From a virus, in IMG/VR virus record IMGVR_UViG_3300036715_003254, positions 1 to 64,000 of that record: a stretch of DNA of 64,000 bases; one strand, given 5' to 3'. Positions 1 through 6,120 of this stretch are shown here, one piece after another. Both the position numbers and the translations under genes were made by a program. Within the stretch, counting starts at the first letter, position 1. Each line of letters opens with the position of its first letter. Below the pieces are notes generated by a model. The model was not told the DNA's origin and did no database searches. It was given only the letters and a program-made list of their open reading frames with translations.

Positions 1-186
1 AACAACAGACCTAAACAAGACAAATTTATATGTACGGCTTGTGGTCATCAGACTAATCCAGATTTCCAGGCGTCTGTACATATACTATATAGAGGTATGA
101 AGTCGTTTGGGCTAGGAACTAGCCTTGCGGACTTATATAAACGCAAAGCCTTTCGTGTTTCAGCTTCGCTGGAAGCTGTTAGTTAG
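1..186 (+). CDS. tnpB: TnpB (IS200/IS605-family RNA-guided nuclease), C-terminal fragment; gene begins before the window
   Basis: Frame 1 reads NNRPKQDKFICTACGHQTNPDFQASVHILYRG...EAVS*. This is the second zinc-ribbon CxxC followed by the RuvC-III NxD-x-x-A-x-x-I motif typical of TnpB ends. Confidence 0.85.
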   Translation, partial: NNRPKQDKFICTACGHQTNPDFQASVHILYRGMKSFGLGTSLADLYKRKAFRVSASLEAVS

Positions 187-238
187 GAAGCTCCTTCATT
201 TATGAAGGAGCGGTTCACCAAGTTCTATTAAGCAAGAA
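95..238 (+). ncRNA. TnpB omegaRNA (reRNA) scaffold overlapping the tnpB 3' end; right end ...GGTTCAC at 218, putative guide 219-238
   Basis: Series of hairpins ending in GCTCCTTCA-TTTA-TGAAGGAGC then GGTTCAC, the usual IS200/IS605 right-end architecture. Confidence 0.7.
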
Positions 239-799
239 CAAGACTAAGAAACTGATTGTTTATGAATAAAGCAATCAAAAATTAAGCTATACAGTAGCTT
301 CCTGTAAGAATTGGTATATTCTTAACTAATCGATATAATAGATTATCAATTAACAAAGAATATATAGTAATAATTCGATAGATTTAAAATTTTTGCTTTC
401 TGTCTTTTAAAATCCCTCTAAAGGAAACATATACAACAATTTTTAAAAATATAAGTAACCGAGAACTTATAAAAATAAATCCTAAAAATATGATTGAAAT
501 TACAACCATAAATTTAGAGACAATTTGACAACAGTAGTTATAATTTGAAGGGATTTGCTTTGTTAGAGAAAATCCGCCTCTAAAATCACATTTTTAGAAT
601 TTATTGTTTTCTGATTTTAGAAACGGAAGAGAAAGAAGTTTTCAGTTCCAGATTCTATGTTTTAGTTTAGAGTCATCTAAAATATAGAATCAGAAACTAT
701 ATTTTAGAGGACTTAATATATGCTCTCGAAATTACAATTTTGCTGGTTTGATTGACAACCAAAATTTATATTCGAGAGCTTAAATATGCAATTCTGCAT

Positions 800-936
800 T
801 TTAAACTCCTCAATTTTTTGTGAACCGTTCCCTTCTGTAAACAGAGTGAACTTCCTAACTAACAACTTACAACAAAGTTGAGCACGAAAGGCTTTGTGTT
901 TATAGTCCACAAGGCTGGTTCCCAACCCAAACGACC
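800..936 (-). ncRNA. Orphan second copy of the omegaRNA scaffold (820-936) with a different putative guide (819-800)
   Basis: The reverse complement aligns with 101-218, with compensatory changes in four stems. No tnpB ORF lies upstream. Confidence 0.7.
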
Positions 937-946
937 TTATAAAATC

Positions 947-1174
947 CTATTTATTCGAAGCAAAAGCTAGAAGTTTGCTAACATTTTCTATTCTAGGTGA
1001 GAAAAACTCCTCTATATCCTTTTTTACGCTTTCAGAATACATATTGTTTTTCATAGCGTCTTTAGAGAACTTCACGCCATTTCTTTCTGTGGTAACTATT
1101 TCTTGAAGTTTATAATCTCTAGACAACCAATTACCACTTTGCTGTTTTGCGTGTGGGCGGAGCGCTTCTAGCAT
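947..1174 (-). CDS. hypothetical protein
   Basis: 75-aa ORF with an AAGGAG RBS and a promoter-like element near 1200-1230. Confidence 0.6.
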   Translation of the reverse strand: MLEALRPHAKQQSGNWLSRDYKLQEIVTTERNGVKFSKDAMKNNMYSESVKKDIEEFFSPRIENVSKLLAFASNK

Positions 1175-1242
1175 TTTATCTTCTCCTTTATAGGCGAAAT
1201 TCTATCGTAAATTACCTTAAAGTTTTATTAAACTTTAAAATT

Positions 1243-1464
1243 TTATTTTGTTCCAGACCCTAGCGATCTAGATCTAGACTCAGACCAAGACTTTGAAACA
1301 AACCAAGAATATTTTTTAGTCTGACTTACAGACCTTGAACTAGCTTTGGTTCTAGTCCAAGACCAAGACCTTGTCCCAGACCAAAAACCAGTCCCATACT
1401 TAGAATTTGACCAAGATCTAGATCTATTTTTTTCACGTCCAATTATTAAAACTGATATACACAT
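1243..1464 (-). CDS. Ser/Arg/Trp-rich low-complexity peptide (73 aa, starts MCISVLIIG)
   Basis: GAGGAAGG RBS before the ATG at 1464; SxSxSx periodicity. Confidence 0.65.
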   Translation of the reverse strand: MCISVLIIGREKNRSRSWSNSKYGTGFWSGTRSWSWTRTKASSRSVSQTKKYSWFVSKSWSESRSRSLGSGTK

Positions 1465-1478
1465 TTTTACGCCTTCCT

Positions 1479-1682
1479 CTATTTTAGCCTTCGCCAAGTC
1501 CAAGAACAAGTACAAATAGGTCTAGACTTCGACCCAGACCAAGACCAATAAAAGGATCTAAAATATTTTCCAGTCCAAGACTTATTCATTGATCAGGTTT
1601 TTGTACAAGAAAAAGATTGAGATCTCGACTTTGTCCAAGATGTATTTTGTTCGTATCCTGTTCTCAAGATTGCTATACACAT
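1479..1682 (-). pseudogene. Ser/Trp-rich peptide paralog (MCIAILRTG...) interrupted by an in-frame TGA at 1593-1595
   Basis: Same start context (GAAGGCRTAAAAATGTGTATA) as the 1464 ORF; the S/W-rich reading continues in frame past the TGA to a TAG at 1479. Confidence 0.55.
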
Positions 1683-1701
1683 TTTTATGCCTTCTTTTTA
1701 T

Positions 1702-1881
1702 TCAAGCCACGAAACCTGTTCCTGAACTTGAATCAACTCTCAACCAAGACTCTGATCTAGACCGAGAAATATGTCTAGAATTTGATACTGACTCATATCT
1801 AAACTTAGACTTAGACCAAGACATAGATTTATATTTTGGTCGAGACAAAGATTTTACTAAACCGACCCTTAAGAACGTCGT
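1702..1881 (-). pseudogene. Ser-rich peptide paralog ((M)TFLRVG...) with ACG at the position of a TAATG-coupled start
   Basis: A 59-codon open frame with SxSx periodicity begins at TA-ACG, overlapping the upstream gene's stop codon. Confidence 0.5.
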
Positions 1882-2156
1882 TACTTTTGTTCTCTAGGCA
1901 AATCTATGTTGATTTGTACGGCATCGATTATTGAGCCTCTGCCGATGATTACTTTCCCGTCAGGGAACGGCTCAACTTCTTTAAATTCTCTTTTTCCCAC
2001 CAGAGCGTCAGAAAATCTATTGGTGTCCGCAATCCAAGCGGCGTCTTCCAACACCAACTCTTGCGGTGTCACATCCACTAGTCTACCAGTGTCAATCATA
2101 GTCACTGTTCTGATGAGATATTTCTTTCCTATTTCCCAAGGACTTGTATCAGCCAT
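1881..2156 (-). CDS. Sm/LSm-like small protein (DUF6948-related phage family)
   Basis: IGKKYLIRTVTMIDTGRLVDVTPQELVLEDAAW resembles the Sm1 motif and the 13497-13874 protein. Confidence 0.6.
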   Translation of the reverse strand: MADTSPWEIGKKYLIRTVTMIDTGRLVDVTPQELVLEDAAWIADTNRFSDALVGKREFKEVEPFPDGKVIIGRGSIIDAVQINIDLPREQK

Positions 2157-2289
2157 TGTAATCCTTTCTTGTTTAATTTCAAGATAAAGAGTAAAAACTC
2201 TAACAAATCAGAATCAAAAACATTATATTTCTGACTTGCTAGAATTTTATTCTAATAAAAAAAGGTTTAAAAATTGAACGATTGAATCA

Positions 2290-2902
2290 AAGAAGAAACT
2301 ATTCAAAACCCAATTTCGATGTATTCTTCTTTTGTAATTCATTACAATTTTAATTATTTGACACGGGTCACCACGAGTCCTCAACACAAAGACTCAAAGA
2401 AGAATGATGAAATCAAAAGAGAAGTTTGGATCTATCCAATTGGCAGACAATATTTGCGTTGTATTCTCTCTTTATGATTCATTCTTTTTTGAATCTTTTA
2501 TAAAAGATTGATAAAATCGAAAAAGAACATTTTGAGACAGCTCTAATCAATCGGAAGCTCCGAATTAATTATTCACTAATTGGGTAGGGTATAAACCTAC
2601 GATCTCATCGTTTTGCTGACGATGTAGTCTTTTTCTATGATTCAATTGTATCATTTCTTGATTCAATGGCGCCAAGAAACCATTGAATCATTCGCACTGT
2701 TTCCCAGACAGCACTTAAAGGCTTCTTTTTAGAGCAATCAGCCAATCAAACTAACTCAACACTATATTAACGGAAGTGCTAACCGTCCGTTATTATTTAG
2801 AGCAACGAAAACTCATAGATTGTTCGCCTTTACCACAATCAGGTGTCAGCTGGGAAGGCTGAAAAGAGAACTCATTGAATAAAATTCTCTTTTCAACTTT
2901 CA
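2290..2902 (-). ncRNA. candidate large structured ncRNA (~600 nt)
   Basis: No ORF of 60 aa or more; promoter -10 at 2909-2914; many hairpins, including 11-bp stems at 2860-2895 and 2659-2690 and a long stem at ~2392-2495. Confidence 0.55.
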
Positions 2903-2908
2903 TAAATT

Positions 2909-2940
2909 ATTATAACTGAAATTAGTTTAAAAATTCTTTA
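2909..2940 (-). promoter_or_regulatory. host sigma70-type (Campylobacterota-like) promoter
   Basis: TTTAAAC-N-TTCAGT-TATAAT, matching the repeated promoter motif. Confidence 0.6.
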
Positions 2941-3231
2941 AATCCAGAGATAAAATCAAGTTTGATGTCAGAGTTTTTAGACTCTCGAGTTTTTAGTGCG
3001 CCTCACAACACAAAAGTTTAAACACAACAGTGTAGGTATTTTGACCTTACGAGTCTCGTCGCAGCAAAGGTTTTCCATTGACCTCAGGAAATCCAATCGG
3101 GCTTGTCTACGCCGGCAAGCAAGCGGATTATGTATGGGAAGATCGAAGTCTTACAGGCATACACAATCATTACCAATTTTCAATATTTGTTCGTTGTAAT
3201 CAAACTTTATAATGCTCTGGATTTAAAAGAA
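2934..3231 (-). ncRNA. candidate ~300-nt structured ncRNA closed by a long terminal stem
   Basis: TTCTTTAAATCCAGAG (2934-2949) pairs with CTCTGGATTTAAAAGAA (3215-3231); AAGTTTGAT/ATCAAACTT extends the stem; GC-richer interior hairpins; promoter -10 at 3247-3252. Confidence 0.55.
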
Positions 3232-3246
3232 CCTTTTATAGTTAAA

Positions 3247-3272
3247 ATTATAGCTAAGAAAAGTTTAAAATA
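3247..3272 (-). promoter_or_regulatory. host sigma70-type promoter
   Basis: TTTAAAC-N-TTAGC-TATAAT. Confidence 0.6.
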
Positions 3273-3383
3273 AAGGAGAATTTTCCCTTATTTCAAAGAA
3301 CGCTTTATAACAAAATCGCCTTTCTCTTTCCAGTAAGATATAATCCAGATTTTGCTAGATGGTATTAAGGTGAACAGAAGAAA

Positions 3384-5924
3384 TTAAATTCTTCTATCCA
3401 AAGTCACTTTAGAGTAATATTCGTCTCTTAGCGCTTGAGAGTCTTCTGCTATTTTTTTAACATAAGGGAAGTATTTTATAATAGCATTTATAATACCCAT
3501 TTTAATACCTTCATCTTCCTCTCTTGAGCTTAAACCTAAGACTTGAGATTTAGGATTTAATCCCCATAAACTCTCTTTAATCATAATTTCTGTCATAGTC
3601 ATAATAATTTTTTTGTCGATATTATATCTCTTGAGTAGAGTTAAGCAACCATAGAATGATCTAAAAAGAGTTAAATCTGCTGATGTAGGCTTTTCTTTAA
3701 AAAGAAGCTCATAAATTTCTTCCAAATTTTTAGAATAAACTGAATTAGAAGTTTTTTCCTCTTTAAAGACATATTTTCCATCGTGCATAACAGGGTCACC
3801 GTTTTTATAGAAGATTTGTCTATATTTTACTCTCATACCTCTATCTACAGAGAATGCTAGCATAGAAAGCCTTCCCTTCGCTTTAGATGAACTAGAAAAT
3901 TTCATTTTATCATCTTCAGAAGGATCTTCTGGTTCAGGAGACGCATCAGTCAATAAAACAATATCTGGTCTGATAGAAAGCGCTCTTACCATATTGATTA
4001 TTAATAGCTTATGTGAAACACCCTTAATCTTATTTTCATATCCCATTACAGTATCAGACCAAACAGAACTATGAGCGAAAGATGAAAAGTCTGTTTGCAT
4101 TCCAGTCTTGTGGTCGTATGAAACCAACTCAAAATCTATTTGTACTTTTACATTGAAGTCTTTGAGAAGGAAAAGACAATTGAATTGAGCGTTATTACCA
4201 GCAGACTCTTTATTCATACCGATATATTGAACGCCTTTTGATATTTCCTTACCTCTATAATCTTGAAGAAAATCGAATAGTTGTTCTGAGTGAACATCAG
4301 GTACAGAAAGGTCTATGTCGCCGACTAGAGGTTTATATTTTTTGAATTCTTCATCACTGATCGATTTATCAAAGAACGCATTTGAAGAGCCGTTGAAAAC
4401 CATATGTGAATTTAGGTATTCTCTATTTTTCCAAATAGGAGTGCCGAATTTCTTTTCATAGTTGTCATTGATAGTGTTAAGCATTTCTGCTATTTTAGCT
4501 GTAATTTCACCTCTAGATAATTTATTCAAATCTATCTTATCTGCTGTGTGTATTTCGTCGCCTAGCCTTACTGAAACATTTCCACCTTCGTTTATTGTAG
4601 ATTCTTTACATTGACTCATTTTTGTGCGTTCTGAACCAGATAAGACTTCCCAACAGAAGCTTGTAAAACCTTTTGGTTTCTGAATTCTTATTGTCGGAGA
4701 AGCAACGAAAACGCCATTGGCATATCTCAAATAAAAGGTAAAAGAAGCTTTTGGAGTTCCATCAGAATATATTACTACATTGTATTGTATACCAGTATTA
4801 TCTTCTGCCTTATTTGAACAAATTTTTACAGAAATATTTTCACCAAAATCTGCTTGTTTTTTCACAAGGAAAATCTTTTTGTCTGTGAGGTAATAATATG
4901 ATTTTTTAGAAATATTTAAGAATCTAAAGACGTTTTCTTTAGTTTCGAGAAGTTTTTCAAATTGTGGTTTTAGAGAGTCTTTTATTTTATTAAAGAAGGC
5001 GTCTCTTTCGTTTTTAAATTTTGAAGCATTTTGAACAAAATAATTTCCAAAAGGTCTAAAATATTTTGATTTTATATTATAGGAATAAAAATTTTCTTCC
5101 TTTGTTGGATTTTCATCTATATTAAATCCAACAACGACATAATATTGATTGTCTCTTTTAAATATTCCGTATTTTATAATTTTGCTTTTCTTTTGACCTT
5201 CTTCTATTTTTTCTTGTTTAAATGAATCTTTCTTTTCCCCATCACCCCTAGAAAAACCGTAAATTACATTATCTTCTTTTATTTCTTGGAGATAATCAGC
5301 AACAATACTATTCCATAAAATTTTGAATTCTGAAGGAGCAGTCTTAATAAAAATATCACTATTTTCTTTTGAAAATTCTTTTGGTAAATTGTCTTCCAAT
5401 GCGTCTATTATTTCTTCGGAATTTTCATCATCTGAAGAAGCACCGCCGTCTTCTATATTTTTATCTACTTCTTTTGCTGTAAGATTAGTTAATGTTGAAG
5501 AAGCAGAGGCTTTTATAGAAACACCAGAATATTCAGAACCACTAGTAAATGAAACATCAGAAGGATCCGAATCTGCTGATTTGTTTTGTCCACCGGCCCA
5601 AGAAAATTCTGTTGGATTGTCTCCATCTTTCATTACATTTGAAAGCTCTGCTCCTCTTCTTCTGAAAACATTGAAAAGAGAAACATCTATCTCAGGTTTT
5701 CCATCTTTTGTTATTAGATCTAATCTTTTTTTAAGAGTATCCCAACCACCAGAAAATTTTGATGTGTCTCCCCAAAAATTTTCATCAAGAATATCTTCAG
5801 GAGATTTAATATCAATACCTCCGAGAAAATGAGACAAAACTCCCAATTCGGTAGAGTATCGAGTTTTTCCTGAAGCACCTTCACACAAAAACTCACTAAT
5901 TTTTTTCATATATTTCTCACTCAA
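3384..5924 (-). CDS. large two-domain protein: PD-(D/E)xK nuclease-like N-half plus Pol-beta-like nucleotidyltransferase-like C-half; possible packaged internal protein
   Basis: W-x-G...PSD...GVSIK in the N-half; FNGSS...VGDID in the C-half; N-terminal MKKISEFLCE resembles a T4 capsid-targeting sequence; late-promoter-like AATAAATA at ~5937-5944. Confidence 0.5.
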   Translation of the reverse strand: MSEKYMKKISEFLCEGASGKTRYSTELGVLSHFLGGIDIKSPEDILDENFWGDTSKFSGGWDTLKKRLDLITKDGKPEIDVSLFNVFRRRGAELSNVMKDGDNPTEFSWAGGQNKSADSDPSDVSFTSGSEYSGVSIKASASSTLTNLTAKEVDKNIEDGGASSDDENSEEIIDALEDNLPKEFSKENSDIFIKTAPSEFKILWNSIVADYLQEIKEDNVIYGFSRGDGEKKDSFKQEKIEEGQKKSKIIKYGIFKRDNQYYVVVGFNIDENPTKEENFYSYNIKSKYFRPFGNYFVQNASKFKNERDAFFNKIKDSLKPQFEKLLETKENVFRFLNISKKSYYYLTDKKIFLVKKQADFGENISVKICSNKAEDNTGIQYNVVIYSDGTPKASFTFYLRYANGVFVASPTIRIQKPKGFTSFCWEVLSGSERTKMSQCKESTINEGGNVSVRLGDEIHTADKIDLNKLSRGEITAKIAEMLNTINDNYEKKFGTPIWKNREYLNSHMVFNGSSNAFFDKSISDEEFKKYKPLVGDIDLSVPDVHSEQLFDFLQDYRGKEISKGVQYIGMNKESAGNNAQFNCLFLLKDFNVKVQIDFELVSYDHKTGMQTDFSSFAHSSVWSDTVMGYENKIKGVSHKLLIINMVRALSIRPDIVLLTDASPEPEDPSEDDKMKFSSSSKAKGRLSMLAFSVDRGMRVKYRQIFYKNGDPVMHDGKYVFKEEKTSNSVYSKNLEEIYELLFKEKPTSADLTLFRSFYGCLTLLKRYNIDKKIIMTMTEIMIKESLWGLNPKSQVLGLSSREEDEGIKMGIINAIIKYFPYVKKIAEDSQALRDEYYSKVTLDRRI

Positions 5925-5943
5925 ATATTTTTAAGTATTTATT

Positions 5944-6120
5944 TTACAAACACTCAACTAATTCAAGCTCAAAAATATCTGTTTCACTCTTGCAAATAAG
6001 AGAGTATTTCAAGCCATCTTTACCTCTATAAATGAAATCTTCAACTTCTTCAAAATCATTCATAAATTCGTCATATCCGACAAATATTTTACCTTCTTCT
6101 TCCTTAATCATTTCTTTCAT
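5944..6120 (-). CDS. small acidic hypothetical protein (58 aa)
   Basis: Open frame MKEMIKEEEGKIFVGYDEF... with an AGGAG RBS at the end of the upstream gene. Confidence 0.5.
   Translation of the reverse strand: MKEMIKEEEGKIFVGYDEFMNDFEEVEDFIYRGKDGLKYSLICKSETDIFELELVECL

Follow-up and report, generated by a model that had tools for sequence, protein, structure and literature searches.

What is a guide RNA doing in a phage genome when no nuclease gene comes with it? The question is raised by the start of the IMG/VR virus record IMGVR_UViG_3300036715_003254, a linear record of 138,481 bp (94% complete by estimate, 32% G+C) whose bases 1–64,000 are the window analysed here. The record opens within the tnpB gene of a copy that we call c1, and 600 bp beyond the omegaRNA scaffold of c1 a second scaffold, c6, lies on the other strand. 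The stretch 820–936(−) is predicted to be a stand-alone omegaRNA gene; it comprises the scaffold and the right-hand end of an IS606-like TnpB element of the IS605 group and has no nuclease gene of its own. Most likely, c6 serves the spread of a selfish mobile element and not the phage. We give an even chance to the more specific reading that it acts in trans as a selfish, stand-alone homing guide, riding on the TnpBs of the phage. The parts of the locus are, in window coordinates:

1–186, plus strand: 3' end of the c1 tnpB gene (61 codons and the stop), an open-ended open reading frame (ORF) truncated by the record start
101–218, plus strand: omegaRNA scaffold of c1; it overlaps the 3' end of tnpB and has GGTTCAC, the element's right end, as its last letters (profile score 106.6 bits; 32 of 32 family pairs)
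219–238, plus strand: guide 1, the flank of c1, which follows TTTAT directly at the empty site in a related phage
713–799, minus strand: 28-amino-acid ORF after guide 2, putatively coding, with a long hairpin (716–785, inverted repeat I3) within it
800–819, minus strand: guide 2, the flank of c6, which includes the ribosome-binding site GAGGAG (811–806) of the next small ORF
820–936, minus strand: orphan scaffold c6, full length, without tnpB (profile score 91.7 bits, E 2.5e-27; 29 of 32 family pairs)
937–987, minus strand: leader common to the three orphans of the record, with a sigma-70-like TTGCTT-16-TATAAG; it overlaps the final codons of the 75-amino-acid ORF
939–943, minus strand: TTTAT, the transposon-adjacent motif (TAM) of the family, 2 nt 5' of the c6 scaffold start
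947–1174, minus strand: 75-amino-acid ORF upstream of c6, of no Pfam family
948–955, minus strand: AATAAATA, an enriched, late-promoter-like upstream motif and candidate promoter, 11 nt 5' of the c6 scaffold

A scaffold without a nuclease gene

A sequence-only reading of this DNA had taken 820–936(−) for a copy of the 101–218 scaffold lacking a tnpB of its own, and alignment, BLAST and profile search all bear this out. When 60–260(+) is aligned with 780–980(−), likeness runs from about 96/941 through GGTTCAC at 212–218/826–820, with none beyond. The scaffolds themselves align from AGTCG (c1) or GGTCG (c6) to GGTTCAC, after which the two copies diverge into their guides at 219–238(+) and 819–800(−), just as that reading had described. 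Within the whole record, BLAST matched c6 to c1 at 79% identity over 126 nt (E 3.5e-22), and the family-profile score of c6 is comparable to those of the tnpB-linked copy c3 (92.8 bits) and the orphan c5 (92.5 bits). The classification of c6 as stand-alone follows from the finding of no adjacent tnpB ORF; the ORF upstream on the same strand is an unrelated 75-amino-acid frame without a Pfam match. An assembly artefact is excluded, since contigs of metagenome run X3, whose sample and study differ from those of the possible source samples, span 168–904 and 895–2027 with zero differences and bridge both orphan junctions. The indel states of c6 recur in tnpB-linked bacterial copies, such as locus L022. 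An Rfam search of 1–3000 returned sub-threshold chance matches only and no omegaRNA family.

Counted over the whole record, as had been proposed earlier, there are six full scaffold copies, three linked to tnpB (c1, c2 and c3) and three orphans (c4, c5 and c6). Those other than c1 and c6, together with one fragment, are:

115539–115656: c2, tnpB-linked scaffold
100151–100269: c3, tnpB-linked scaffold
97777–97889, minus strand: c4, orphan scaffold
101847–101961, plus strand: c5, orphan scaffold (L005:1501–1615; outside the window)
117105–117132, minus strand: 28-nt right-end relic with terminal hairpin and GTTCAC, not significant alone

The 28-nt relic lies just past the stop of a paralogue gene, upstream of one of the complete tnpB genes (e2, below), which suggests an older, decayed insertion beside the present tnpB.

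The relatives of the scaffold point to a single bacterial phylum. A blastn search of INPHARED with bases 1–6000 matched the scaffold alone, with 77–81% identity to copies in Helicobacter phages and prophages; in one of them a divergent 'transposase' lies beside tnpB. A search with the scaffold core pattern found 5 viral and 62 genome-contig loci, and all 62 of the latter belong to Campylobacterota (Helicobacter, Sulfurimonas, Sulfurovum, Aliarcobacter/Arcobacter and Nitratifractor); the exact scaffold pattern gave 0 matches in IMG/VR. The phage TnpB is about 60% identical to copies in Sulfurimonas, Sulfurovum and Aliarcobacter and 40–42% identical to most H. pylori copies. These closest TnpBs adjoin a divergent 138-amino-acid Y1 TnpA, which is the layout of the IS605 group. 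The left junction reads TTTAT directly followed by CC... in five of six full bacterial elements examined (the sixth has TTAT) and in Helicobacter mini elements. We take TTTAT as the TAM, in agreement with the printed specificity of IS606, which inserts beside TTTAT or TTAT, as stated in PMC3154945 with reference to Kersulyte 1998. On the right, the element ends in (G)GTT(T)CAC. All six phage copies and the bacterial relatives lose likeness right after (G)GTTCAC, in whose place c5 has GGTTTAT.

In H. pylori, protein-less mini-IS606 elements (L019, L024, L033–L035, L044, L047, L053, L061, L065, L070 and L071) have a left end (TTTAT, then CC.ACTAGC... and a hairpin) that leads, after some 30 nt at most, straight into the first position of the omegaRNA scaffold. 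An independent orphan in a Nitratifractor metagenome-assembled genome (L063:162–276) consists of TTTAT, 2 nt and the scaffold, the same spacing as at c6, and a recurrent route to left-end-less minimal units of this layout is possible. The TTTAT of c6 may be in part coincidence: tnpB codons of c1 align with its last three letters, TAT, which weakens this motif as proof of a precise mini-element boundary.

It had further been proposed that four stems covary between c1 and c6. Covariation does hold for the family as a whole, as judged from 22 members and a five-helix structure of 32 pairs (702 cells). The structure pairs in 92.3% of cells, compared with 78.2 ± 0.8% in 500 shuffles, none of which reached the observed value; slid controls paired in 40.7–59.0% of cells, and double-sided changes occur at 18 of the 32 pairs. 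What did not hold is a covariation peculiar to c6, in which no compensatory pair is private. Up to the terminal hairpin, 12 substitutions and 4 gap columns separate c6 from c1. Of these substitutions, nine fall within pairs, leaving three pairs compensated (15/21, 29/44 and 65/80), one as a wobble (13/23) and one broken (69/76). From c1 to c6, stem 1 changes from A-U to G-C and additionally from C-G to U-G, stem 2 from C-G to U-A, the third hairpin from G-C to A-U, and the terminal hairpin from C-G to U-A. Every compensated allele recurs in other copies (the stem-1 G-C in c3 and c5, the stem-2 U-A in c2, c4 and c5, and the third-hairpin A-U in c4 and bacterial copies), so that the compensatory changes predate c6. 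The covariation between c1 and c6 is thus standing family variation, an alternative that the sequence-only reading had itself put forward. The other five phage copies form 28–32 of the 32 family pairs. Taken alone, c6 has a fold energy no better than that of shuffles (z score −0.97). By eye the terminal hairpins are mosaic, that of c5 resembling c2 and that of c4 resembling c1, which suggests exchange between copies.

Nucleases and the place of insertion

Use of c6 in trans would require a TnpB elsewhere in the phage. The record has three tnpB genes, of which two are complete (e2 and e3) and the third is that of c1, cut by the record start. The complete frames were translated as 471 and 476 amino acids (469 when counted from a shared ATG), and both proteins have HTH_OrfB_IS605, OrfB_IS605 and Cas12f1-like TNB domains. 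The C-terminal 61 residues of the c1 TnpB are 97% identical to residues 411–471 of the full TnpB at 100187–101599, and the c1 tnpB 3' end gives a weak Cas12f1-like_TNB match in Pfam. The earlier reading had raised the state of the RuvC D-E-D residues, which we take to be catalytic, and the presence of tnpA. In the complete tnpBs D-E-D is kept: in the alignment made for e3, GIDMN, VVEDL and NPDHQAS fall on the D, E and D of the RuvC domain in solved TnpBs. No tnpA was found in the whole record, where searches for a Y1 transposase and for a serine recombinase were both negative. The ratio of nonsynonymous to synonymous change between the e2 and e3 genes, dN/dS, is 0.17 (dS 0.47), which indicates purifying selection on the complete tnpB genes. 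The e2 and e3 copies are similar only from about the ATG on; their upstream regions are not significantly alike and have only the ATAAATAAT motif in common, and both copies are accordingly regarded as lacking tnpA and a recognisable left end. Use of a guide in trans is possible since the complete tnpBs keep D-E-D and seem to be under purifying selection in a record without tnpA.

The late-promoter-like AATAAATA at 955–948(−), to which the sequence-only reading had drawn attention, proved to be a real motif of this phage. Among 7-mers, ATAAATA shows the strongest enrichment in the 120 nt ahead of ORFs, which were called crudely (27 of 130 windows, 6.8-fold). AATAAATA itself occurs in 22 of these 130 upstream windows and at 33 sites across the whole record, mostly 24–34 nt 5' of an ATG that has a ribosome-binding site. 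In being A/T-rich, eight letters long and enriched shortly ahead of genes on their coding strand, it conforms to the pattern by which T4-type late promoters are recognised. The phage's most enriched upstream motif, (C)AAATAAATA, is probably a late-type promoter of the phage, and remains a candidate as such. It is found, for example, on the minus strand of the window at 5942, 24118, 27933, 46351, 50039 and 63902, in most cases at that same distance of 24–34 nt from an ATG served by a ribosome-binding site, and it also stands ahead of both complete tnpB genes.

On the minus strand, AATAAATA (955–948) overlaps the stop of the 75-amino-acid ORF and is followed by TTTAT (943–939), AA, the scaffold (936–820), guide 2 (819–800) and an ATG (799–797). 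Excision of the 119-nt insert would leave AATAAATA 29 nt from this ATG, the usual spacing in the phage, and the simplest history for c6 would be an insertion at TTTAT inside a 5' leader. The layout at c4, ahead of a 353-codon open frame, is the same.

The 60 nt upstream of the orphan scaffolds were compared by local alignment with 500 shuffles. The leaders of c4 and c5 (z 9.3, 0 of 500 shuffles) and of c5 and c6 (z 7.1, 0 of 500) are alike, and those of c4 and c6 less so (z 2.8, 7 of 500), with the c6 leader clearly shared only with c5. In the c4 and c5 leaders a sigma-70-like promoter was called that ends 3–6 nt before the scaffold; the TTGCTT-16-TATAAG of c6 fails the rule of the scan and was not called. 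As to their origin, the leaders do not significantly resemble tnpB 3' ends, the sequence ahead of e2 and e3 or bacterial left ends. Against the latter, c4 gave one gappy match (z 3.2), c5 and c6 gave nothing above z 2.5, and no GC-rich hairpin is visible by eye. A leader-plus-scaffold pattern had 7 matches in metagenome contigs, all of them chance matches without a scaffold. An apparent segmental duplication of c4 and c5, with about 190 nt shared upstream, was withdrawn: beyond the proximal 60 nt the likeness has z 1.2 (58 of 500 shuffles).

The stretch is present in four sediment and mat metagenome runs (X1–X4), and a relative phage, 98–99% alike in the flanks, is carried by X5 and X6, two vent metagenomes with identical figures that are possibly one data set. 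In this relative, a contig covers 219–343, and the 33 letters before it end in TTTAT with no scaffold. This TTTAT, directly followed by guide 1, is the uninterrupted target of the c1 element. The relative has the spacer without the tnpB element. The c1 and c6 copies look like separate insertions, and the earlier remark that c6 faces the tnpB gene carries no meaning for what are apparently two events 600 bp apart.

Possible selfish homing and its alternatives

With this in mind, one may speculate on how c6 is used. Transcription from the phage promoter motif or from the leader would yield the scaffold with about 20 nt of flank as the guide, and a phage TnpB, acting in trans, would load this RNA. 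The complex would recognise TTTAT joined to the guide-2 sequence, an arrangement expected at this locus in a co-infecting relative that lacks the insertion. A cut there would be mended by recombinational repair that copies in the element and its neighbourhood, resulting in homing or in marker exclusion. The phage's own copy would be spared, as the scaffold separates TAM from target. Of the earlier proposal of an extra trans-acting guide for inter-phage competition, use in trans is retained as possible and homing between phages is favoured, whereas domestication for the benefit of the phage is not.

Several observations weigh against homing by c6. The phage TnpBs, whose own scaffolds carry two small insertions, would have to accept c6. 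Peculiar to c6 are an initial G, T.T where 21 of 22 family members keep a C-G closing pair, and a terminal hairpin flawed by one mismatch and one bulge. In the X5/X6 relative, 699–818 and 936–1093 are kept, the scaffold ends have less than 80% likeness and the GGTTCAC end is replaced; the orphan is thus old enough to be shared but not conserved like its flanks, and selection at the locus is not evident. Orphans are also about as common as tnpB-linked copies among the bacterial relatives, and many of them may be relics: of 69 scaffold matches outside the phage, 22 have a tnpB upstream, 20 have none, 2 have a fragment only and 25 lie too near a contig end. No RNA run containing the stretch was found, and neither was a genome with an empty c6 site. 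Such an allele could not be found for lack of syntenic relatives: INPHARED matched only the scaffold, the 75-amino-acid ORF had no relatives in viral or metagenome contigs, and of the 131 IMG/VR relatives of a 91-amino-acid neighbour, the 79 loci kept share nothing past the 91-amino-acid gene.

Targets for the guides were sought in the record and in IMG/VR, as the earlier reading had proposed, and for guide 2 none flanked by a TAM was found. None of the guides matches the record perfectly at a second site. Guide 2 has no second match there at up to 2 mismatches in 16 nt; when its 20 nt were searched with up to 4 mismatches, three other sites with 3–4 mismatches appeared, none after TTTAT. In IMG/VR the guide-1 20-mer has 0 matches and the guide-2 20-mer has 8 exact ones, all in unrelated coding or ribosome-binding-site sequence and none after TTTAT. 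These eight are chance matches, and they lend nothing to the idea of host targeting; host genomes were not searched for guides. In X3 and X4, summed contig depth relative to unique flanks is about 15–19x over the c1 scaffold bin (101–200) and about 4x over c6 (801–1000), an excess from which we conclude that the scaffold family is abundant in these communities, with many more copies. Loose ends in these runs show several other guides after GGTTCAC.

The strongest rival, which we hold possible if on the unlikely side, is that c6 is an inert relic, the decaying right end of an IS606-like element that has lost its tnpB and is perhaps passively transcribed in the downstream leader. A relic would account for the loss of the conserved 3' motif in the X5/X6 ortholog between flanks that are 98–99% alike, for the private damage, for compensatory alleles that are all inherited family variation and for the frequency of orphans among bacterial relatives; the 28-nt fragment at 117105–117132 shows that such decay occurs in this genome. 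However, c6 is on a par with tnpB-linked copies in profile score and pair count, a promoter-bearing leader directly before the scaffold is common to the three orphans, the promoter motif stands 11 nt upstream of c6, and stand-alone omegaRNAs have been reported to function in trans (PMC10691335).

A variant to which we assign a rather low probability extends the idea to the whole genome, in that the promoter-driven, transposase-less TnpBs and the three stand-alone guides would together form a distributed, RNA-guided system of marker exclusion aimed at insertion-free alleles in rival phages. If true, this would be a natural step between the single guide borne by a transposon and a multi-guide, CRISPR-like arrangement, kept through biased inheritance in co-infection.

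We find it improbable that the phage has domesticated a multi-guide system and keeps TnpB and guides for its own benefit, be it to attack rival phages or the host or, in the manner of TldRs, to repress the gene behind the ribosome-binding site that lies within the guide. Some TldRs are prophage-borne. The phage TnpBs retain their RuvC residues, unlike TldRs, and there is no second TAM-flanked match to guide 2 in the record, where its sole match is its own flank without an adjacent TAM; the earlier suggestion of TldR-like repression accordingly finds no support. The absence of a transposase and of a canonical left end would fit domestication, as would the ATAAATA motif ahead of each of the e2 and e3 tnpBs, the presence of three guides with three nucleases and the overlap of guide 2 with the ribosome-binding site of the next ORF. 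Yet no TAM-flanked match to the guide was found in IMG/VR, the c1 element is present at a TTTAT in one phage and absent there from another, the polymorphism that a mobile element should produce, and the c6 ortholog is not conserved.

Little credence is due, finally, to a cis-acting role, in which the inserted scaffold would mainly be a 5' untranslated leader affecting the stability or translation of the downstream transcript, with or without TnpB binding: c6 does lie between AATAAATA and GAGGAG/ATG, c4 has the same layout before its 353-codon frame, and the minimum-free-energy fold pairs the 5' end with the ribosome-binding-site region, but that fold is no better than shuffles, the 28-amino-acid ORF is of doubtful coding status, and any TTTAT insertion in a 5' leader would give such a layout.

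Known systems and neighbouring features

Stand-alone omegaRNAs without effector or transposase occur beside effector loci and act in trans, with a role given as unknown (Altae-Tran 2021, via PMC10691335). As in the OMEGA systems described there, c6 has a scaffold with a flank-derived guide, no adjacent effector or transposase, and effector loci of its family in the same genome; unlike them, it lies in a large phage, downstream of a phage promoter motif and inside the 5' leader of a gene, and it is known from sequence alone. Palindrome-associated transposable elements (PATEs) often encode omegaRNAs that require TnpB in trans (Meers 2023, PMC10055086). Like PATEs and the Helicobacter mini-IS606, c6 is protein-less, keeps the whole omegaRNA and right end, and would need TnpB in trans. 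The Helicobacter minis have a left end (TTTAT, then CC.ACTAGC...) with a GC-rich hairpin, in contrast to the phage orphans, whose leader has no significant likeness to it. With H. pylori IS606, an IS605-group element with divergent Y1 tnpA and tnpB, the phage copies share the TTTAT target, the right end GTT(T)CAC and a scaffold 77–81% identical to the Helicobacter phage and prophage copies; they differ in lacking tnpA and the left end, and in a TnpB only 40–42% identical to most H. pylori copies. To the TldRs described in PMC10705468 the likeness is that of a TnpB relative with an omegaRNA-like guide, and the difference is an intact RuvC D-E-D with no TAM-flanked promoter target in the record.

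The free-standing homing endonucleases of T4-like phages, Seg and Mob (PMC13565253), offer a working analogy rather than a membership. The proposed cut of an insertion-free rival allele and spread by repair in co-infection are alike, whereas recognition by c6 would be RNA-guided, with the guide gene apart from the nuclease gene. Non-restorative homing into co-infecting phages is presented as a theoretical case in that 2026 review, and a cyanophage preprint mentions a phage tnpB of unknown role. Our literature search returned no description of orphan omegaRNAs in phages, nor of RNA-guided homing by phage orphans. The c6 locus is thus a clean, well-bounded, natural stand-alone omegaRNA in a large environmental phage with several predicted nuclease-competent, transposase-less TnpBs, and its loading in trans, if it occurs, would make it a case of RNA-guided homing from one co-infecting phage to another. 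Conceptually it adds little, as stand-alone omegaRNAs and PATEs carrying them have already been published.

The stretch between the two convergent guides (219–819) is a 600-bp A/T-rich spacer without a convincing ORF or a tRNA. It holds inverted repeats at 315–364, 573–627, 671–713 and 716–785, and is kept in the X5/X6 relative apart from about 344–473. Dense direct repeats of GACCAAGAC-like units (families D1–D3) occupy 1243–1880 of the window, within overlapping short ORFs on both strands.

The orphan c5, in another part of the record, truncates one member of a ten-copy family of genes of about 100 amino acids (EKYLGxSKLTSEY). Its terminus is GGTTTAT instead of GGTTCAC, which places the TAM TTTAT immediately before its own guide, and this end with its perfect terminal hairpin was scored as an intrinsic terminator. 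The c5 guide matches paralogues of the ten-member family at 1–3 mismatches, preceded by TTCAT, TTCAC or TTTAT.

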